Assembly: GCA_016789445.1 (NCBI GenBank)
Contig: JAEUQT010000001.1
Location: 1,308 to 65,307 of the forward strand
Length of the DNA: 64,000 nucleotides
Origin: a bacterium
GTDB lineage: Bacteria > Patescibacteriota > Minisyncoccia > Phycocordibacterales > UBA2100
Reading direction: 5' to 3'
Part shown: positions 848 to 59,990 of the stretch, in pieces
Layout of the letters: each line of letters opens with the position of its first letter
How positions within the stretch are numbered: the first letter of the stretch is position 1
The notes under the pieces: generated by a model
Database searches by the model: none
Told to the model about the DNA's origin: nothing
The model's input: the letters and a program-made list of their open reading frames with translations, nothing else
Made by a program: the position numbers and the translations under genes

Positions 848-1025
848 CACGCGACCTTCGTCGCCTGCGCAGCTAGTTTTAGTGAGACGGAAGCATATTT
901 CCTTCAGCAGAAGGAAATGCTGAGTCGGGGTGGCGCAAAAATTTTTGCGACGGGAAAAATTTTATGCGTGACCGAAAACGACCATACAAAGAATGAGCCC
1001 ACCGGAAGTTGGTGGGCTCTGTAAG

Positions 1026-4433: not shown

Positions 4434-4465
4434 ATCGAGAGGATTATATCACGGTGCCGGAAGAA

Positions 4466-4624
4466 GCTCGGTCACGGATAATTTCCTCGCCGACGCTCGG
4501 GAATTTCCGCGACCCCGGCTCGCGGTCCTGCCTGCTAGCGGGACATCGCTCCGCCTTTCGAGTCTCTCACAGACAGCGCATTGGCGCTGTCTTTTCCGGC
4601 ACCGCTTTCGCGATGCTCAATCGG
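4466..4624 (-). repeat. Type-A composite structured repeat, immediately downstream of tRNA-Leu(CAA)
   Basis: Contains GACTCGAAAGGCGGAGCGATGT...CCGCGAGCCGGGGTCGCGGAAATT...ATTATCCGTGACCGAGC and the hairpin GACAGCGCcaatGCGCTGTC. It is near-identical in architecture to 19041-19196. Confidence 0.75.
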
Positions 4625-7520: not shown

Positions 7521-7530
7521 GGATCGTTGC

Positions 7531-7672
7531 GGTCACAACTCTCACTCTCGCCGTAGCTCGAGTTCGGTCGCGACCCCGCCTCGTCCGTTTCGCCTACTGG
7601 CGAAACATACCTCCGGCTCCCGCAAAAGCACAAAGACAGCACGCAGGTGCTGTCTTGTGTGTATTTTGCGGG
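7531..7672 (-). repeat. Type-A structured repeat (reverse orientation) in the 3' region of the AOX-like gene
   Basis: Reverse complement reads CAAAA-ACACACAAGACAGCACctgcGTGCTGTCTTTGTGCTTTTG...ATGTTTCGCCagtagGCGAAAC-GGACGAGGCGGGGTCGCGACC...GTGACC. The same modules occur at 19684-19890. Confidence 0.7.
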
Positions 7673-8617: not shown

Positions 8618-8688
8618 CGGGCCCACTAGGAATCGAACCTAGGCTAACGGTTTTGGAGACCGATGTACTACCATTATACGATGGACCC
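8618..8688 (-). tRNA. tRNA-Trp (anticodon CCA)
   Basis: Reverse complement reads GGGTCCA-TC-GTATAATGGTAGTAC-A-TCGGTCTCCAAAACCGT-TAGCC-TAGGTTCGATTCCTA-GTGGGCCC-G, with anticodon loop cuCCAaa. Confidence 0.8.
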
Positions 8689-8828
8689 TAACGAGGATCG
8701 GAAGAGAAAGCTTGCTTTCTCTTTCTCCGAGTGACGGGTTCATACGATCCTCTAGTATGGACCCTTCGGGACTGAGTATAGAACCTGGAATGCTAAGCGC
8801 CAATACGCACCACGTGCACCACTAGCAG

Positions 8829-18160: not shown

Positions 18161-18195
18161 GGCCACGTGGTGAAGGGGTACGAGTCTGCACAATC
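18161..18195 (+). pseudogene. Partial 5' copy of tRNA-Cys (pseudo-tRNA fragment)
   Basis: GGCCACGTGGTGAAGGGGTA-C-GAGTCTGCAcaatc matches the first ~40 nt of the intact tRNA-Cys 83 nt downstream, with a 6-nt deletion. It has no 3' half. Confidence 0.7.
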
Positions 18196-18243
18196 TTCTC
18201 CTTTGTCTTACCGCGTGAGTCGTAGATAAAACTGTTTTCTAAA

Positions 18244-18372: not shown

Positions 18373-18436
18373 GGCCGGAGACGCTCGGCGTCGAGGCGGG
18401 GTCGCGGAAATTTTCAGCAGAAAATTATCCGTGACC
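18373..18436 (+). repeat. Type-A structured repeat (minimal module)
   Basis: GGCCGGAGacgcTCGGcgtCGAGGCGGGGTCGCGGAAATTTTCagcaGAAAATTATCCGTGACC. Confidence 0.75.
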
Positions 18437-18503
18437 AACTCCACCGCCTCCCCAACCATACAATTGACTAATCCTCATCCTCATTGCAGGATTCCCCTAT
18501 CCT

Positions 18504-19040: not shown

Positions 19041-19196
19041 ATTGAGCAGAGCGAAGCTGTGTCGGGGAGAACAGTGCCGACGCACTGTTCGGGTGGGACT
19101 CGAAAGGCGGAGCGATGTTTCGTCAGCAGACGAAACCGCGAGCCGGGGTCGCGAAAAAGTCTGCACGACGGTGCAGACTTTATTCGTGACCGAGCC
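19041..19196 (+). repeat. Type-A composite structured repeat, immediately downstream of tRNA-Leu(TAA)
   Basis: GATTGAGCA...GTGTCGGGGAGAACAGTGCcgacGCACTGTTcggg-GACTCGAAAGGCGGAGCGATGTTTCGTCagcagACGAAACCGCGAGCCGGGGTCGCGAAAAAGTCTGCACgacgGTGCAGACTTTATTCGTGACCGAGCC. Confidence 0.8.
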
Positions 19197-19683
19197 AAAC
19201 GGAATCAAAACGAGCTCTTTGCCGAGTCCTTCTCCCGGCAGCGAAAATTGTTTACACAAGATTCTTGAATCGCTCTTTCAGGAGTCGATATCTACGAATC
19301 GTATCGGGTTGCGAAAGAACACGCCCACTGTCTCTCTCTTCTCCTTCAAGTTGTTGAAACGTGAGGTCTGAATATTGGTCCTTTGTAAAATCAATCTGCG
19401 TTCCGTCTGCGAGAGCGTTCCAGTAATGTGAGCGCAAATGCGCATATTTAGATATATGTGCCAGTGAACCGCACATCAACTTACCACCCAAGTATTCCTG
19501 CGCTAAAACAGAAGCAACTGCACAATGTCCCCACAATGGATTGTGTTCTGTCCAATGTTTCGGATCTGCAGATGTGTCGCGCTGCGCGACATTTCTCAGT
19601 ATTCGTGAGAATGTGTCTCGATCGACTGTCATATCTAGCACTAATTAGCTTGATAATATCATTCCTTATCTTCACGGATATTT
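19197..19683. other. Low-GC islet between tRNA-Leu(TAA) and tRNA-Lys, flanked by type-A repeats
   Basis: GC visibly about 45% versus about 60% for flanking DNA. One hypothetical gene (19252-19641). Confidence 0.5.
19252..19641 (-). CDS. Hypothetical protein in a lower-GC islet between tRNA-Leu(TAA) and tRNA-Lys
   Basis: 129-aa ORF. The local GC (~45%) is clearly below the window average. Confidence 0.5.
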   Translation of the reverse strand: MLDMTVDRDTFSRILRNVAQRDTSADPKHWTEHNPLWGHCAVASVLAQEYLGGKLMCGSLAHISKYAHLRSHYWNALADGTQIDFTKDQYSDLTFQQLEGEERDSGRVLSQPDTIRRYRLLKERFKNLV

Positions 19684-19890
19684 CTTGCCCGACGGTGCAA
19701 TAAATTCCGCGACCCCGACTCGCCGCTCCGGCAGCTGCCGGAACATCGCTGCGGCTCGGACGAGTCCTCAAAGATAATGTTCTCGCCGTCGCTCGAAAAT
19801 TTCCCCGAGCCTGGCTCGCGGTTTTGCGTGCTCGCAAAACATCGCTCCGCCTCGGACAAAAGCACAAAACCTCCCACAGGGGAGGTTGTT
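19684..19890 (-). repeat. Tandem type-A structured repeat modules immediately downstream of tRNA-Lys
   Basis: Reverse complement reads CAAAAGACACAACAACCTCCCctgtGGGAGGTTTTGTGCTTTTG-TCCGAGGCGGAGCGATGTTTTGCGagcacGCAAAACCGCGAGCC...ATTATC...GAGCCGCAGCGATGTTCCGGCagctGCCGGAG...GTCGGGGTCGCGGAATTTATTGCACC. Confidence 0.75.
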
Positions 19891-29619: not shown

Positions 29620-29683
29620 GGCCGGAGGCGCTTGGCGCCGAGGCGGGGTCGCGCAAAATCGCAGTAGCGATTTATGCGTGACA
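29620..29683 (+). repeat. Type-A structured repeat (minimal module) after rpsA
   Basis: GGCCGGAGGCGCttgGCGCCGAGGCGGGGTCGCGCAAAATCGCagtaGCGATTTATGCGTGAC. Confidence 0.75.
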
Positions 29684-29820
29684 TCAGTAATCCCAACCGG
29701 CAATTCAAATGCGCCCCAGAGAGGGGCGCATTTGACATATGTGTAAACGCATGTTAAAGAGAATCCTCCTCAAACGTGCTCCACGTGAAAGGCTTTAGAT
29801 ACGTTTACGTCAATCCAGGT

Positions 29821-41724: not shown

Positions 41725-42657
41725 CTACTTACCCATCTGGATGCTCTGCGCGATACGGTCGATGACGGCGTCGAGGTTGTAGTTCTCCTGCTCGCTCACG
41801 CACGCCTGTTGCTGCGGACCTTCGATATTGAGGCACTGCGGATAGCGGAGCTGGAAGAACAGACGGTACGTCGCATCGCCGAACGCGAACGCGTATTCAT
41901 AGGCACGCACATCACCCTCAGCCGTCCCCTGTGCCCGCGACGTGACGCAGTACTCACGATCGCCGATCGTGCGCTTCTCGACGGTCTGCATCGGCCCGTC
42001 TGCGGCAGTTATCGGTCCTGAATTACAGGAATACTGATTCACGACTCTCTCAACGACCGGCGGCCACTGTGCGGCTTGGATATACGTCGTCGGAAGCTCC
42101 ACCGGATACATGAAGCTGATATTCTGCGCATTTGCCGATGAACGCAGCCACTGTCCCTCGTTTGGAGCCGGTGCCATGATGAATTCCGTAATCCGCCAGC
42201 CATCTTCAAGCTGCTCGACGGTGATAGTAACCGGGCGTCGGAGCGCTTCGGTCGGCTCTTCGTTGATACCACCTCCTTCGTTCGTTACTTCCACGATATC
42301 ACCTTCGACGCGGTACCGTGTGTCAGTCTCCTTTGTCAGAGTGCGGATATCGATGCGATCCGGCCACGGACTCGACGTCAGTCTTCCTGGCGCATTCGCC
42401 GGGTCGATTGCCCACTCCTGAACGAGCACATCCAAGACGTACGGACTGTAATTTGCCCGCATAGCAGCTTCCACATCGGCCGACGGTGCAAGAAGCGATA
42501 CATCCTTGAGCTGCGACCCGAAATCTTCCACAACGCGACGCACGGCCGCCTCTTGATCCACCTGAAACGGCGTCACTGAAATAAGGTAGGCACCACCAAT
42601 GACCAAAAGAAGGACGATAGCCGCCAGCCAGGGCCAGAAGCGATTCATGAATTCCAT
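41725..42657 (-). CDS. Hypothetical membrane-anchored extracytoplasmic protein
   Basis: N-terminal TM helix, 310 aa. Confidence 0.55.
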   Translation of the reverse strand: MEFMNRFWPWLAAIVLLLVIGGAYLISVTPFQVDQEAAVRRVVEDFGSQLKDVSLLAPSADVEAAMRANYSPYVLDVLVQEWAIDPANAPGRLTSSPWPDRIDIRTLTKETDTRYRVEGDIVEVTNEGGGINEEPTEALRRPVTITVEQLEDGWRITEFIMAPAPNEGQWLRSSANAQNISFMYPVELPTTYIQAAQWPPVVERVVNQYSCNSGPITAADGPMQTVEKRTIGDREYCVTSRAQGTAEGDVRAYEYAFAFGDATYRLFFQLRYPQCLNIEGPQQQACVSEQENYNLDAVIDRIAQSIQMGK

Positions 42658-42788: not shown

Positions 42789-43541
42789 ATGTCAACGACA
42801 TCGACCACTCTCTTCCTTACGGCCCTCGTCACCGGCGCCGGTTCCCTCTGCCTCGATGCGAACAAGCAGGTGGTCTACAACGGCGCGTCAGACAGCTGCC
42901 TCTCCTCGACGCGCGACACGAAGGAGGAAATCAATCCCCTCGTGACCGAAGCTCTCGAGCAGGTCCTCGCGCTCAACCCGGTCTCCTTCAGATACAAGCA
43001 TGGCGACGGCCGCACCCGATACGGCTTCATCGCCGAAGACGCGGCCGACGTGGACGCTCATCTCGCCACCTATGATGCCCAATTGAATATCTCCGGCATC
43101 GACGACCGCGCCATCCTCGCCATCCTCGTCGGCGCCATCCAGGACCTCGCCCGTAAACTCGCGGACCTGGCGGAACACCTCGTCACGAAGGAACTGGCAT
43201 TCCAGCGCGCCGTCGGCGAAAGCCTGACGCTCACGCGCGAACTCTGCATCGCCGAGGGCGCGAACGACGCTTCCCCGCTCTGCCTTACCAAATCCCAGCT
43301 CAACGCCCTGCTAAACCAGATCGGCGCCGCCGTGCTCCCCTCATCCGTGCCGCCTCCAGCGGCTAATGACGACGTCCCGGACCTCCCCGATGCTTCGGCA
43401 TCGCCCGACGATAATGGGACACCCCAACAGCAACAAGAGCCAGCGTACGAGAACCCGGAGCCGGGCTTGGGGACTGAAGCACTCGGTCCTAGCCCTGCGG
43501 ATGCCGAACCTGCACCCGCGATGGAAACCACGGGCAGCTAA
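42789..43541 (+). CDS. Protein with a tail-fibre/endosialidase intramolecular-chaperone (peptidase S74-like) domain
   Basis: N-terminal hydrophobic segment, then LNPVSFRYKHGDGRTRYGFIAEDAADVDAH...AILAILVGAIQDLARKLADL, which matches the C-terminal chaperone domain of phage tail fibres. Pro/Asp-rich tail. Confidence 0.55.
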   Translation: MSTTSTTLFLTALVTGAGSLCLDANKQVVYNGASDSCLSSTRDTKEEINPLVTEALEQVLALNPVSFRYKHGDGRTRYGFIAEDAADVDAHLATYDAQLNISGIDDRAILAILVGAIQDLARKLADLAEHLVTKELAFQRAVGESLTLTRELCIAEGANDASPLCLTKSQLNALLNQIGAAVLPSSVPPPAANDDVPDLPDASASPDDNGTPQQQQEPAYENPEPGLGTEALGPSPADAEPAPAMETTGS

Positions 43542-43589
43542 TCCTCACGCTTCTACGCAAGCCGACCACGGCTTGGTACAATCATCTGC

Positions 43590-44306
43590 ATGATGCAGAG
43601 ACTTCAGCGAGGCCTCGAGATGATAGCCGCTGGGTTTGTCGGCGCGGTCTTCACCTCAGTGGTCGTCGTCGCCTGGGCAGGCCCGACGTCCGCACCACCC
43701 AACGGCAACGCCGCCGCGCCGATCAACATCGGAGCGACCGCGCAAGTCAAAAACGGCGGTCTCTCGGTGAACACGCTCGCTGTTTTCGGGAACGGTACGC
43801 TGACCGGCAATTTCGGCATCAACAACACTGCGCCCACCTATCGCCTCGACGTGAGCGGCAGCAGCCGCGTCGACGGCAACCTCCTCCTCTCCGGCGCGTC
43901 GCGCTACCTCAATTTCGGCGCCGCTACGGGCACGAGTGGTTATGGCATCCGCGACAATGCCGGCACGTTGCAGTTCAAGAACAGCAGCGGCAGCTGGAGC
44001 AGCTTCCTTCCGAGCAGCGGCGTGGTGAGCATTACTTTCATCGATGGCACGGTACAGACGACGGCAGCCGTGGCTGTCAGTCCTGTGCAAACCACGGTTT
44101 CGTGCACAACTGCTTCCACCGGAGGCTCGCGCTGCACGACCGCCAACTGTCCTTCGGGGTACGTCCGCACCGGATGCAGCGCGTATCGCTCAGGCGATGC
44201 GGTTACGGCCGGAGCAAGGCCGATCGGGACAGCGGCCTGTGAGTGCGCAAACCAGTACGTCGGTTCGCCAGGGACTTCGTGTTATACCTACTGCCTGAAG
44301 TTCTAG
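43590..44306 (+). CDS. Secreted beta-rich fibre-like protein with Cys-rich C-terminus
   Basis: Signal peptide, Gly/Asn/Thr-rich repeats (NIGATAQVKNGGLSVNTLAVFGNGTLTGNFGINNTAPTYRLDVSGSS...), then nine Cys in the last 60 aa. Confidence 0.55.
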   Translation: MMQRLQRGLEMIAAGFVGAVFTSVVVVAWAGPTSAPPNGNAAAPINIGATAQVKNGGLSVNTLAVFGNGTLTGNFGINNTAPTYRLDVSGSSRVDGNLLLSGASRYLNFGAATGTSGYGIRDNAGTLQFKNSSGSWSSFLPSSGVVSITFIDGTVQTTAAVAVSPVQTTVSCTTASTGGSRCTTANCPSGYVRTGCSAYRSGDAVTAGARPIGTAACECANQYVGSPGTSCYTYCLKF

Positions 44307-44377
44307 GCGGCGTTGGCGGAGTTCTGGAGCGAGCCGCCTGCCCCAAAAGGCCTCGCGCTGCGCGCGAGGCCTCCCAC

Positions 44378-44644
44378 TCAGTACTCATCCGCGAGCATGA
44401 TCGTGAGTACCCGCGTCGTGATACCCGCGTCAGCCGGATTCTCAGACCCGAACTCGAGATCCTTGGCGTAATAGTCAATCTTCCAGAACAGCATCTCGCC
44501 GACATGCTCGAAGCTGCCGAAGTCATGTTCACCCTGAGGGTCATTGTCTGGGGTGAAATCTTCAAAGCGCTTCACCTGTTCGTGGACTAGCACGACGCCG
44601 AGGGGCCACACCGCGACCAACTCCCGAACGCCGGCCGTGATCAT
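44378..44644 (-). CDS. Hypothetical protein
   Basis: 88-aa ORF. Confidence 0.35.
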   Translation of the reverse strand: MITAGVRELVAVWPLGVVLVHEQVKRFEDFTPDNDPQGEHDFGSFEHVGEMLFWKIDYYAKDLEFGSENPADAGITTRVLTIMLADEY

Positions 44645-44830
44645 GATCTGCCTTGTTCAGGTGCGACTCCGGCGTATGGACATGGGGATCCCACTTTCTA
44701 AAAATCGAGCCGTAGGGGGGGTAATTTGCCATAGAGAATCCATACTGCGCTTTCTGAACCTCAAGCTCAACTAAGCCTCAGCGGCGTATCGGAGCGGTAT
44801 GCACTCGCATACCTCCGATAAAAAATACTC

Positions 44831-44920
44831 TTGGCGGAGAGGGAGAGATTCGAACTCTCGAGACCGTTTCCAGTCTGCCGCATTTCGAGTGCGGTGCTTT
44901 CGACCACTCAGCCACCTCTC
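44831..44920 (-). tRNA. tRNA-Ser (anticodon CGA), CCA encoded
   Basis: Reverse complement reads GGAGAGG-TG-GCTGAGTGGTCGAAAGC-A-CCGCACTCGAAATGCGG-long variable arm-GAGAGTTCGAATCTCTC-CCTCTCC-G-CCA. Confidence 0.85.
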
Positions 44921-45069
44921 CAAGTCGATTGTGCGTTTTGCACGTTTAATCCTCGAGCACGTGCGGAGTTCGCTTCCTCCTGAAATCGGTGCGCCGAATT
45001 TCAATCGGCTCACATCGATTTCTCCTCGCGGAGCTCGGACCGGATGAAAAGCCGTCAACGGCATTTCAT

Positions 45070-45087
45070 CCACTCAGCCACCTCTCC
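45070..45087 (-). pseudogene. Partial 5' copy of tRNA-Ser (first 18 nt) followed by a strong hairpin
   Basis: Reverse complement reads GGAGAGGTGGCTGAGTGG, then GGATGAAATGCCGTTGACGGCTTTTCATCC. It lies 150 nt upstream of the intact tRNA-Ser on the same strand. Confidence 0.65.
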
Positions 45088-45357
45088 AGTCGGGCAGATA
45101 GTACCAGAATTAGCCCTTTTTGGCACGCTGAGCCTTGGTTTCTGCCTCTCGCTCAGCGACGTCATTAGCAAGCACTCGGGCAAGGGTCTGGCGCAGCTCA
45201 GCACGAGCCTTTTCGGGCAATTCGGAGGTATGCTCGCCTTCAGGGCGAGGAGTATGTGCGGGGAACTTCTCCACGCCGATAAGGATAGCATGCACGAGGA
45301 CACGAAAAGGACCACCCCTTCAAGTTTTGGGGAAAATGCGCTATATTGGCCCCCGTA

Positions 45358-45429
45358 GGCCTCATCGTCTAATGGTTAGGACAGCGCCTTTTCAAGGCGT
45401 TAATCGGGGTTCGATTCCCCGTGAGGTCA
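45358..45429 (+). tRNA. tRNA-Glu (anticodon TTC)
   Basis: GGCCTCA-TC-GTCTAATGGTTAGGAC-A-GCGCCTTTTCAAGGCGT-TAAT-CGGGGTTCGATTCCCCG-TGAGGTC-A. TATATT -10 at 45343-45348. Confidence 0.85.
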
Positions 45430-45430
45430 C

Positions 45431-46225
45431 ATGTATTCCCGGCTTACACTCAAAGAGTTCGCCAGGGACTTCGTAGTGTTCGGCATTAAGGAAGCTCGAT
45501 CCTGCATATTCGCAGGTTCGTTCTTCGTGCTTCTTTTCCTTTCCAATCACATTCCCCTCTTTGGTCTTGCCCGCTACGATTTTCTCTTTTTGAGCGCGAT
45601 AGCGCTGCAGATCATCCTCTTTCTCACGAAAGTAGAAACCTGGGACGAGATAAAGACTATCTTCCTCTTCCACATCGTCGGCACGGTACTTGAACTCTAT
45701 AAGACGAGTGCATTTGTCGGCTCATGGAGCTACCCGGAGGAAGCTTTTTTCAAGATCGCGACCGTTCCGCTCTTTTCCGGATTCATGTACGCAGCCGTCG
45801 GCAGCTACATCTCACAGGCATGGCGATTGCTGAAGCTCGAACTGCGCGGATACCCGCCGTACTGGATGACGGTCGTCCTCTGTTTTTTCATCTACCTCAA
45901 TTTCTTCACCAATCGTTTTGTACCGGATTTCCGCATCATCCTCATCCCGGCGGTCTTCGTCCTCTTCGCACGCACCTTCATCACGTTCGTACCAACGAAA
46001 CGCCGGTATTCCATGCCGCTCTCGCTCGGCTTCTGTCTCACCGCATTCTTTATCTGGATTGCCGAAAATCTCTCCACGCTCTGGGGCGCATGGCAGTATC
46101 CCGATCAGGTCCACGTCTGGAACGTCGTCAGCACCAACAAGATCACCTCATGGTTCCTCATGGTGATCATCAGCTTTATCATCGTGGCGTACCTCAAGCA
46201 CCACAAAGAGCGCTATAATCGGTAA
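45431..46225 (+). CDS. Hypothetical polytopic membrane protein
   Basis: 264 aa with about eight TM helices. The ATG is 2 nt after tRNA-Glu, so the real start may be further downstream. Confidence 0.5.
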   Translation: MYSRLTLKEFARDFVVFGIKEARSCIFAGSFFVLLFLSNHIPLFGLARYDFLFLSAIALQIILFLTKVETWDEIKTIFLFHIVGTVLELYKTSAFVGSWSYPEEAFFKIATVPLFSGFMYAAVGSYISQAWRLLKLELRGYPPYWMTVVLCFFIYLNFFTNRFVPDFRIILIPAVFVLFARTFITFVPTKRRYSMPLSLGFCLTAFFIWIAENLSTLWGAWQYPDQVHVWNVVSTNKITSWFLMVIISFIIVAYLKHHKERYNR

Positions 46226-48349: not shown

Positions 48350-48488
48350 ATATATTGAAGATTCTACCGCTTTGGACTATACTGCGCCACACGATTCCTA
48401 GGGGAATCAAGCTTAGCGCGCTTAGCTCCGGCGGATGACGCTGATATGCCAGGCTGGGCGAGCACGAGACTGAAAGTGAGAAAATAAC

Positions 48489-48560: not shown

Positions 48561-48605
48561 CATGAGACACAAAACCTGCCCTGCGGCAGGTTTTGTGCCA
48601 TGTGC

Positions 48606-48762
48606 GAGCCGGAGCGATGTTCCGCCAGCAGGCGGAACCGCGAGGCCGGGTCGGGCGGCAGTTTGCGCGACGGCGCAAGCTGAATGCCTGACCACACATG
48701 AAAGACCGGCGAGACGGGGTCGCGAAAAAATTCGCCTGACGAGGCGGATTTTATTCGTGACC
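48606..48762 (+). repeat. Two tandem type-A structured repeat modules downstream of tRNA-Val
   Basis: GAGCCGGAGCGATGTTCCGCCagcagGCGGAACCGCGAGGCCGGGTCGGGCGG..., then GAGACGGGGTCGCGAAAAAATTCGCCtgacgAGGCGGATTTTATTCGTGACCGATCC. A 15-bp direct repeat TGAATGCCTGACCAC at 48681 and 48818 brackets the second module. Confidence 0.75.
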
Positions 48763-48844
48763 GATCCTTTCTGCTCCATCGCGACGGCGACGGGAATCTC
48801 TGTGACCACTGAGAATTTGAATGCCTGACCACGAGCAACTCTTT

Positions 48845-55681: not shown

Positions 55682-55803
55682 CAGAATCTCCGAAAGGTTC
55701 CGGAGATTCTTTGAGAACCCTCGGTTCTCAACGGGCTATTTCGCTTCGCTCATAGCCCTGCTCTCCTACACGGGAAAACTACAGTTTTCCCGCCCCCTTT
55801 CGG
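55682..55803 (-). repeat. Type-B structured repeat (copy B3) abutting the 5' end of tRNA-Phe
   Basis: Reverse complement reads GGGGGCGGGAAAACtgtagGTTTTCCC-GTGTAGGAGAGCAGGGCTATgagcgaagcgaaATAGCCCG-TTGAGAACCgaggGTTCTCAAAGAATCTCCggaacctttcGGAGATTCTG. Confidence 0.75.
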
Positions 55804-55820
55804 GCAGACTATACCATTTC

Positions 55821-59236: not shown

Positions 59237-59337
59237 GTTCCTATCGTGCGAATACATCCTGACAACGGCACCCGGCCCTGCTCTCATATCATCCGCCGAA
59301 ACTAATCCCGTTTCGCGCCAACTATAGCAAAGCGGAT

Positions 59338-59891: not shown

Positions 59892-59990
59892 ATCACGCAT
59901 AAATCGCTGGTGCGATTTTGCGTGACCCCGCCTCGCAGCCGAGCTGCTCCGGCCTTGCGACGGGGTCCCAACCCCGCCTCACCTCTGCGT
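59892..59990 (-). repeat. Type-A structured repeat (reverse orientation) downstream of lepA
   Basis: GTCACGCATAAATCGCtggtGCGATTTTGCGTGACCCCGCCTCGCAGCcgagCTGCTCCGGCC is the reverse complement of the consensus seen at 29620-29683, with a compensatory loop change. Confidence 0.75.

Follow-up and report, generated by a model that had tools for sequence, protein, structure and literature searches.

The stretch of DNA described here (the window) is 64,000 nucleotides (nt) long and belongs to contig JAEUQT010000001.1 of a Paceibacteria-like member of the Patescibacteria. It has a G+C content of about 56%, encodes FtsA, FtsZ, TrxB, TsaD and ValS, and carries 13 scattered tRNA genes. One of them, a tRNA-Ser(CGA) gene, is intact and is preceded on the same strand by a second copy of its own 5' end. 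Comparison with relatives identifies this arrangement as the outcome of an insertion in the 5' part of the gene, and the same layout is found at other tRNA genes of this genome.

The tRNA-Ser(CGA) locus

The locus comprises the following features, all on the minus strand.

44832-44921, minus strand: intact tRNA-Ser(CGA) gene (ARAGORN; 61.1 bits with the Rfam tRNA model)
44904-44921, minus strand: repeat copy R1a, the first 18 nt of the intact tRNA-Ser(CGA) gene
44922-45069, minus strand: unique insert of 148 nt which, together with one repeat copy, makes up a 166-nt insertion relative to all relatives
45042-45071, minus strand: hairpin with a UUGA loop, 12 pairs and a single U.U mismatch, which forms the left end of the insert
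45070-45088, minus strand: repeat copy R1b, the orphaned original tRNA-Ser 5' end, positions -1 to 18 (exact match; tRNA start site in all relatives)
45098-45106, minus strand: extended -10-like box TGGTACTAT, the original tRNA-Ser promoter, 10 nt upstream of the orphaned 5' end
45110-45295, minus strand: conserved open reading frame (ORF) of 61 amino acids (aa), which serves as synteny anchor (homologues 100% and 89% identical)

The body of the tRNA gene is unaltered: 88 of its 90 positions are the same as in relatives, the differences being confined to the last two bases. The sequence GGAGAGGTGGCTGAGTGG corresponds to positions 1-18 of tRNA-Ser(CGA) and occurs as two exact copies on the minus strand, at 44904-44921 and 45070-45087; no third match is found when up to three mismatches are allowed, and the number expected by chance is 0.05. 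As position -1 (a T) is included, the exact repeat is 19 nt long; beyond it come two mismatches and then GAAA, which makes 25 nt at 92% identity. The inner edge of the repeat is sharp, and a weak residual similarity lies just outside it (CGACT(T) upstream, nnGAAA downstream). The initial annotation had already recognized the 18-mer as positions 1-18 of the tRNA gene, repeated upstream on the same strand, and this holds exactly; the distance between the copies, given there as 150 nt, is 166 nt from start to start, with 148 nt in between.

The same annotation described a perfect hairpin right after the 18-mer. The hairpin is indeed strong (-16.9 kcal/mol, z = -6.6, the only one of its kind in the window) and adjoins the upstream copy, but it shares the last two G of that copy and contains one U.U mismatch. 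It does not resemble an intrinsic terminator, as it has no U-tract, its stem being followed by GGUCCGAG, and the terminator scan was empty.

The uninterrupted gene of related genomes

A metagenome scan with the variable-arm sequence of tRNA-Ser led to eight loci. The uninterrupted tRNA-Ser(CGA) gene is found behind the same promoter in eight related loci, of which three are conspecific and five represent other species. The promoter box is kept as TGCTAGTAT or TGGTACTAT directly upstream of this gene in L098-L106 and in L109, and the 61-aa ORF stands directly upstream of tRNA-Ser in L098, L101, L103 and L106. In three loci of other species (L098, L101 and L103), the homologue of this ORF ends in ...GCCAAAAAGGGCTGA TTCTGCTAGTATCTTGGCTACT, immediately followed by the tRNA gene, whereas the order in the window is ...GGGCTAA TTCTGGTACTATCTGCCCGACT, 18-mer, 148 nt and then tRNA-Ser. 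The alignment of the window with relatives (alignment A1) has a single, clean 166-column gap that is shared by all five aligned relatives.

The comparison extends to the same species. L106, which was reached via the 61-aa ORF, is about 97% identical to the window at the nucleotide level across 10.2 kb, i.e. belongs to the same species, and carries the identical promoter string with an uninterrupted tRNA-Ser gene immediately after it. Furthermore, a TrxB protein 100% identical to that of the window is encoded on more than 10 further contigs, of which L109 and L112 have an uninterrupted tRNA-Ser. In the window, tRNA-Glu lies 436 nt from tRNA-Ser, compared with 254-279 nt in relatives (270 nt in L109), and the 18-mer is single-copy in each of the 13 other loci that hold it.

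Since relatives have a single copy of the 18-mer and their tRNA gene lies directly behind the promoter, this comparison identifies the upstream 18-mer as the original 5' end of tRNA-Ser(CGA), stranded at its own promoter. Judged by the empty site, the window allele has gained 166 bp behind position 18, in the D-loop. The gain comprises 148 bp of unique, hairpin-rich DNA together with positions -1 to 18, regenerated, and the complete tRNA gene thereby lies 166 bp further from its promoter. The insertion is specific to this allele, as the conspecific strains retain the uninterrupted gene. This structural explanation can be regarded as secure; how the insertion came about is a matter of interpretation, addressed below. 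The suggestion in the initial annotation that an insertion had displaced the tRNA 5' end is thus borne out by relatives, three of them conspecific, whereas the alternative that it had envisaged, a common promoter-proximal motif, is ruled out by the single-copy state of the 18-mer in all 13 other loci.

The DUF817 gene (45358-46225 in the window; found in L001-L049) was also considered as a synteny anchor and dropped, since it adjoins different tRNA genes in different genomes. In many Patescibacteria, it starts 0 to about 70 nt after a tRNA gene, and the tRNA that precedes it is tRNA-Glu in the window and Leu-CAG, Gln-CTG or Ser-TGA elsewhere.

The 148-nt insert

The insert is moderately structured (fold z = -2.7). 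No credible ORF was found between the two repeat copies, and leader peptides, judged by eye, were not consistent across this insert and those described below. The insert lacks terminal inverted repeats (best case 8 of 14 positions in any register), is not significantly similar to its flanks or to the remainder of the tRNA, and does not belong, according to a profile search, to the three-hairpin repeat family found on the other side of many tRNA genes (see below).

The same layout at other tRNA genes

Each of the 13 tRNA genes of the window was compared with its own 300 nt upstream. Same-strand copies of the tRNA start were found for five of them, the other eight giving only scattered matches of 6-8 nt:

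18161-18243, plus strand, at tRNA-Cys: 20-nt copy of positions 1-20 (18161-18180), then a 63-nt insert; the copy starts 83 nt upstream
minus strand, at tRNA-Ser: 18-nt copy described above; the copy starts 166 nt upstream
48416-48488, plus strand, at tRNA-Val: 13-nt copy (48416-48428), then a 60-nt insert starting with CGGCGGATGA; the copy starts 73 nt upstream
59237-59311, minus strand, at tRNA-Gly: 12-nt copy of positions 2-13 (59299-59310), then a 62-nt insert starting with CGGCGGATGA; the copy starts about 74 nt upstream
8690-8765, minus strand, at tRNA-Trp: 9-nt copy AGGGTCCAT (8757-8765), then a hairpin-rich 67-nt insert; the copy starts 76 nt upstream

All five copies begin within one or two bases of tRNA +1. 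Those of Cys, Ser and Gly lie 8-10 nt behind a TGnTAnnnT box (TGCTATATT, 8 nt upstream of the Cys copy; TGCTATAGT, 9 nt upstream of the Gly copy), and the uninterrupted tRNA genes of the window lie 8-11 nt behind such a box; no TGnTAnnnT box was found within the inserts. The Val and Gly inserts both open with the 10-mer CGGCGGATGA right after tRNA position 13 and can be aligned further on, i.e. they are homologous. The fold z-scores of most inserts are unremarkable, that of Trp being -3.1. The Trp repeat had been reported in the initial annotation as a weaker case. It is real, as AGGGTCCAT has two matches on the minus strand (8681-8689 and 8757-8765) versus 0.26 expected, but the stronger cases at Cys, Val and Gly had been overlooked.

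A survey of 157 tRNA genes, from the window and all fetched loci, included about 140 genes from other organisms as controls. Prefix copies of at least 12 nt were found in this species only, plus one other case, a tRNA-Asn of L048 (also Patescibacteria), which makes one in about 140 controls. The Ser case is therefore one example of a recurrent layout, which these comparisons document at Cys, Val, Gly and Trp in the window and at tRNA-Asn in L048. In the latter (L048, 9494-9840), the 12-nt copy of the 5' end (15 nt with three matching bases upstream) lies 105 nt upstream, behind a TAGAAT box, and a 21-nt copy of the 3' end of the same gene lies 167 nt downstream. In the window at 55683-55820 (minus strand), tRNA-Phe has a TGGTATAGT box 125 nt upstream and a multi-hairpin leader devoid of any recognisable copy of the tRNA start; an older insertion of this type may have given rise to it.

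The Val case also occurs in the conspecific L106 and L109, i.e. in three independent assemblies, which indicates that such structures are real in this lineage. This bears on the idea that the Ser layout is an assembly artefact or a chance repeat, which can draw on the occurrence of the Ser allele in one assembly and on the fact that contigs from other samples break at the tRNA (L111, L112 and L113). A chance repeat is opposed by the expectation of 0.05, and an assembly loop through the repeat would still require real reads in which each end of the 148 nt is linked to the repeat; together with the Val layout in three assemblies, this makes an artefact or a coincidence hardly credible.

The lengths of the units raise the question of whether they are decayed tandem duplicates of the tRNA genes, of which only the first 8-20 nt would still be recognisable. 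Indeed, start-to-start spacing is close to tRNA length at four genes (83 vs 75 nt for Cys, 73 vs 73 for Val, about 75 vs 73 for Gly and 76 vs 72 for Trp), and the Cys insert shares GAGTCTGCA with the anticodon arm of its tRNA and shows complementarity to the prefix. However, the remainder of the units is not tRNA-similar (p from 0.07 to 0.77; p = 0.01 for Gly, whose test included the 12-nt copy), none of the five units is recognized as a tRNA by ARAGORN in pseudogene mode, and those of Ser, Cys and Val gave no hit with the Rfam tRNA model at E values up to 10. A perfect prefix adjoining unrecognisable sequence is unlike uniform decay, the Ser unit measures 166 nt for a tRNA of 90 nt, and no tandem stage is seen in relatives. 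Decayed duplication is thus an improbable origin.

A functional leader kept by selection (decoy, attenuator or processed small RNA) would account for the presence of the layout at five tRNA genes, for the strong Ser hairpin, for the retention of the Val unit in three strains and for the ability of the Cys and Val inserts to pair with the prefix (p about 0.008 each). Such pairing is not significant for Ser, Gly and Trp, and the inserts other than those of Val and Gly share neither sequence nor structure. Most fold z-scores are unremarkable, and the conspecific strains and five related species do without any insert at tRNA-Ser. Selection for a function appears distinctly improbable.

Mobile DNA on the 3' side of tRNA-Ser

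The usual order of genes in this species is 310-aa gene (minus), 69-aa ORF (plus), conserved structured element (minus), tRNA-Ser (minus), 61-aa ORF (minus), tRNA-Glu (plus) and DUF817 (plus). In the window, the following segment replaces the 69-aa ORF from its codon 18 onward, together with the structured element:

42840-44831, strand unassigned: strain-specific segment, a mobile-element remnant with an S74-chaperone ORF, a tail-fibre-like ORF and a 5'-truncated DUF3768 gene

The DUF3768 gene lacks its first 24 codons or so. All seven conspecific contigs compared match the window up to 42839 and diverge at 42839/42840; the 310-aa gene (41725-42657) is core, being present in all strains. L109 is devoid of the cluster, with nothing extra on the 3' side of its uninterrupted tRNA-Ser, and thus provides the comparison with a relative lacking the cluster that the initial annotation had proposed. 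The closest relatives of the DUF3768/tail-fibre module are all in mobile elements: one is next to a P4-like tyrosine integrase in L117, which shares its sequencing run with L112, one is in an island with restriction-modification genes (L121) and one in a prophage (L122).

Other strains carry other DNA at this place. In L106, an element encoding a large serine recombinase directly follows the tRNA (L106, 10296-13704). In L107, L108 and L110, the junction with DNA that encodes an N6/N4 methyltransferase and the large subunit of a terminase falls within tRNA-Ser, 4 nt from its 3' end (around 11260 in L108). The 3' side of tRNA-Ser is thus demonstrably, from the strains compared, an integration hotspot with four different contents. 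The element of L106 and the phage-like DNA of L107, L108 and L110 may be the two ends of one prophage.

Several other peculiarities of the window were observed here. The divergence of tRNA-Ser from its relatives begins right after the discriminator base, where strain-specific DNA starts; CCA follows in the DNA of the window (44832-44835), whereas all eight relatives compared lack an encoded CCA. The first 17 codons of the S74-chaperone ORF (MSTTSTTLFLTALVTGA, 42789-42839) are taken from the 69-aa ORF, which encodes a membrane protein and is complete in all other strains, this fusion having been made at the island junction. A second perfect direct repeat of 18 nt, GTTCGCCAGGGACTTCGT, is found at 44263-44280 (3' end of the tail-fibre-like ORF) and at 45457-45474 (codons 10-15 of DUF817). 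It brackets tRNA-Ser, the 61-aa ORF and tRNA-Glu; its flanks are dissimilar, and the conspecific DUF817 alleles differ from it at 2 of 18 positions.

The initial annotation took the repeated 18-mer as one end of an integrated element containing the cluster at 41.7-44.3 kb. In favour of this, the DNA from 42840 onward is strain-specific, derives from a mobile element and ends at the tRNA, so that its reading of a mobile cluster stands for this part; its first gene, the 310-aa gene at 41725-42657, is core. However, the DNA between the repeats amounts to 148 nt and lies on the other (5') side of the gene, and the matching second repeat that was expected beyond the cluster is lacking, no further copy of either tRNA end being present there in the window. 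Both geometry and strain comparison thus contradict the 18-mer as a boundary of the cluster, and this is a very improbable reading. Since the repeats flank DNA on the 5' side and the cluster lies on the 3' side, the latter is, on its content and distribution, a decayed mobile element acquired in an event separate from the 5' insertion. The four other tRNA genes with the same duplication and no such cluster nearby also indicate that the duplication of the 5' end is a separate phenomenon.

Between about 42.0 and 46.1 kb, the identity of the window to the conspecific L106 and L109 is 82-92%, against about 100% in the flanks. The tRNA-Ser locus thus looks like a divergent allele, and both of its peculiarities probably arose in another lineage and came in by recombination.

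One reading of the same data is a one-step import, in which foreign DNA carrying a complete and identical tRNA-Ser(CGA), its own 148-nt upstream flank and the DUF3768/tail-fibre segment would have taken the place of the resident DNA. One of its ends would have been joined illegitimately at position 18 of the resident tRNA, whose 5' stub would thus have stayed behind. Besides the divergent patch in an almost identical background, this would explain why the window allele alone carries both the 5' insert and the 3' cluster. The tRNA body, which is identical across species, would be a good homologous anchor, and the left edge of the repeat is at tRNA +1, where conservation across species stops. 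Homology-facilitated illegitimate recombination was reportedly described in transformable bacteria by de Vries and Wackernagel in 2002. On the other hand, if the 148 nt were the natural flank of a tRNA gene, it would be one without the strong TGnTAnnnT box that is present 8-11 nt upstream of several tRNA genes of the window and of tRNA-Ser in every relative, and the closest homologues of the DUF3768 gene are not beside a tRNA. Import in one step also leaves unexplained the four further tRNA genes that have no foreign cluster and the homology between the Val and Gly inserts. It is therefore an unlikely explanation, although it has more in its favour than the other alternatives considered above.

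A three-hairpin element downstream of tRNA genes

In the window and in related genomes, many tRNA genes are followed by a terminator and then by an element of about 110-125 nt with three hairpins, mostly on the same strand. Its first part is exactly the reverse complement of the T-loop and 3' T-stem strand of the host tRNA, and it includes conserved single-stranded cores (AGGCGGAGCG..., ACCGCGAGCCGGGGTCGCGGAAA and ATCCGTGACCGA). Some copies end with a direct copy of the tRNA 3' end (an exact match of 19 nt at the tRNA-Ser of L100 and L101; 12 nt at tRNA-Leu(CAA) in the window). Among the tRNA-Ser copies, nine predicted pairs display compensatory changes. The element is absent from Rfam. A profile search finds 11-12 copies in the window, where the core 20-mer has 8 matches versus 0.04 expected; the tRNA-Ser allele of the window has lost its own. 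The copies are as follows:

4459-4570, minus strand: three-hairpin element
19092-19198, plus strand: three-hairpin element
19666-19858, minus strand: two three-hairpin elements in tandem
48595-48831, plus strand: up to three three-hairpin elements
18387-18440, plus strand: three-hairpin element
893-978, plus strand: three-hairpin element
7521-7625, minus strand: three-hairpin element
29639-29692, plus strand: three-hairpin element
59892-59943, minus strand: three-hairpin element
L100, L101, L105 and L107-L113: three-hairpin element downstream of tRNA-Ser

Comparison with known insertions in tRNA genes

Displaced tRNA fragments at integrated islands and prophages (attachment or att scars) have been mapped by Islander (PMC4383910). 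Like these scars, the Ser locus displays a direct repeat of part of a tRNA gene, a regenerated intact gene, an empty site in relatives and a hotspot. However, it lacks an integrase and cargo, the repeats being separated by only 148 bp, and the 5' end rather than the 3' part has been displaced and left with the promoter. According to PMC8371274 (citing Williams 2002), it is almost always the 3' part of the tRNA gene that is replaced in bacteria, the gene keeping its promoter. The same review covers archaeal pTN3-like integrases (Cossu et al. 2017), for which the target is the 5' half of a tRNA gene, a case presented there as seldom met in bacteria. The Ser locus resembles these in having an att-like site in the 5' half of the gene (repeat from -1 to 18, junction in the D-loop), with incoming DNA that restores the 5' end. 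As depicted there, pTN3-like elements differ in being kilobase-sized archaeal plasmids or viruses with a split integrase and a promoter that drives the tRNA, whereas the present insertion is bacterial, with no integrase and no evident promoter.

The inserts also share features with miniature inverted-repeat transposable elements (MITEs) and insertion sequences (IS): they are short and non-coding, are accompanied by a direct target duplication and, for Val and Gly, are related. Unlike MITEs and IS, they have no terminal inverted repeats, and the duplications of 9-20 bp always start at tRNA +1. As regards the multiple copies and fixed duplication length expected of a MITE or IS, Val and Gly share a related insert and a duplication that extends to position 13, the duplications of all cases taken together range from 9 to 20 nt, and the Ser insert is single-copy. 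Cis-mobilizable elements (CIMEs), which Pavlovic et al. are said to have described in 2004, are att-flanked elements without a recombinase of their own. Likewise, the Ser insert lies between att-like direct repeats and carries no genes for recombination, the enzyme presumably acting in trans. CIMEs are kilobase-sized and derive from known integrative and conjugative elements, whereas the inserts found here are 60-148 bp, and neither the 64 kb of genome covered nor the scans of viral contigs yielded a cognate element or integrase.

Finally, extra sequence is known in tRNA genes of the same phylum, as Patescibacteria harbour tRNA group I introns (PMC13011429), which lie in the anticodon loop, are much longer than the inserts described here, match an Rfam intron model and do not duplicate an exon. 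A tRNA intron of any kind (group I, group II or bulge-helix-bulge) was rejected for the Ser insert, which matches no Rfam family at E values up to 10 and is followed by a gene that is complete without splicing. The Cys and Val units likewise correspond to no Rfam family. No description of the present layout was found in a limited search of the literature.

Origin and expression of the displaced genes

In the proposed origin, a recombination-type event would place a short DNA segment within the first 8-20 bp of a tRNA gene and, in doing so, restore the 5' end. This could occur either by an att-like crossover with incoming DNA bearing a matching tRNA 5' segment or by a target duplication anchored at the tRNA or at the transcription start. 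The left edge of each repeat, at tRNA +1, fits recombination with DNA that shares only conserved tRNA sequence, i.e. an att-like site or a foreign tRNA allele, and fits a process anchored at the transcription start as well. The variable lengths of the repeats and the lack of inverted repeats disfavour an ordinary transposase, and the relatedness of the Val and Gly inserts, which share their position in the tRNA, favours a specific small element. The site itself does not encode the recombination enzyme, which would be supplied in trans, as with att-flanked elements that have no integrase.

Transcription of tRNA-Ser would still start at the old promoter and would produce a 5' leader of about 170-190 nt that opens with the orphaned fragment and the hairpin; RNase P would cut at the true 5' end, so that the insertion would be tolerated. 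Expression through such a leader is favoured by the normal tRNA fold of the downstream gene, by the inserts being devoid of a promoter box of the type used in this lineage and by a hairpin that is not terminator-like.

Several observations weigh against this explanation. The Ser allele comes from a single assembly; exact-protein look-ups for further assemblies of this allele, or for strains covering tRNA-Cys, returned no records. Neither the window nor any of the 155 fetched loci holds another copy of the Ser insert, and neither pattern scans of viral contigs nor phage and plasmid searches gave a match or a free, circular or full-length form. In viral contigs, the 18-mer followed by a base other than T has 33 matches, all of them in ordinary tRNA-Ser genes except two, a coincidence in a coding region (L140) and a fragment cut at the anticodon (L128). 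No recombinase or integrase gene is present at the site, nor does the window encode a homologue of three recombinases from related loci. No convincing promoter was seen at the tRNA-proximal end of the inserts, where elements targeting the 5' half would be expected to supply one. The spread of repeat lengths from 9 to 20 nt counts against a single transposase, and the unit length of about 73-83 nt, close to that of a tRNA in four of the five cases, is not predicted by an insertion model. With these points taken into account, the explanation as a whole (displaced 5' end, regenerating insertion, recurrent layout, and the proposed expression and origin) is judged fairly probable.

A broader proposal can be put forward only tentatively, and it is rather doubtful: the lineage would harbour an undescribed class of miniature recombinase-less insertions that target both ends of tRNA genes and rebuild the end that they interrupt. 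The 5' inserts of 60-150 nt would strand the old start at the promoter and the three-hairpin element of about 110-125 nt would be the counterpart on the 3' side; the transcription and processing of a third or more of the tRNAs of this streamlined genome might then, if this possible but not favoured view is correct, have been reshaped.

Consequences for tRNA genes of this lineage

The tRNA genes are classic landing sites of mobile DNA, and the rule in bacteria is that their 3' part is replaced and that the gene retains its promoter. In this small genome, the reverse is seen repeatedly, as the promoter keeps a stub and the working tRNA gene lies behind a leader of 60-170 nt. From the genomes surveyed, the layout is a lineage-enriched pattern of which tRNA-Ser is one case. 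Such stubs can be mistaken for the boundaries of islands, as they were in the initial annotation. If an active process lies behind the layout, it would be a new kind of tRNA-targeting insertion and, if the proposed expression is true, these organisms would routinely make tRNA precursors with long leaders that start with a tRNA fragment.

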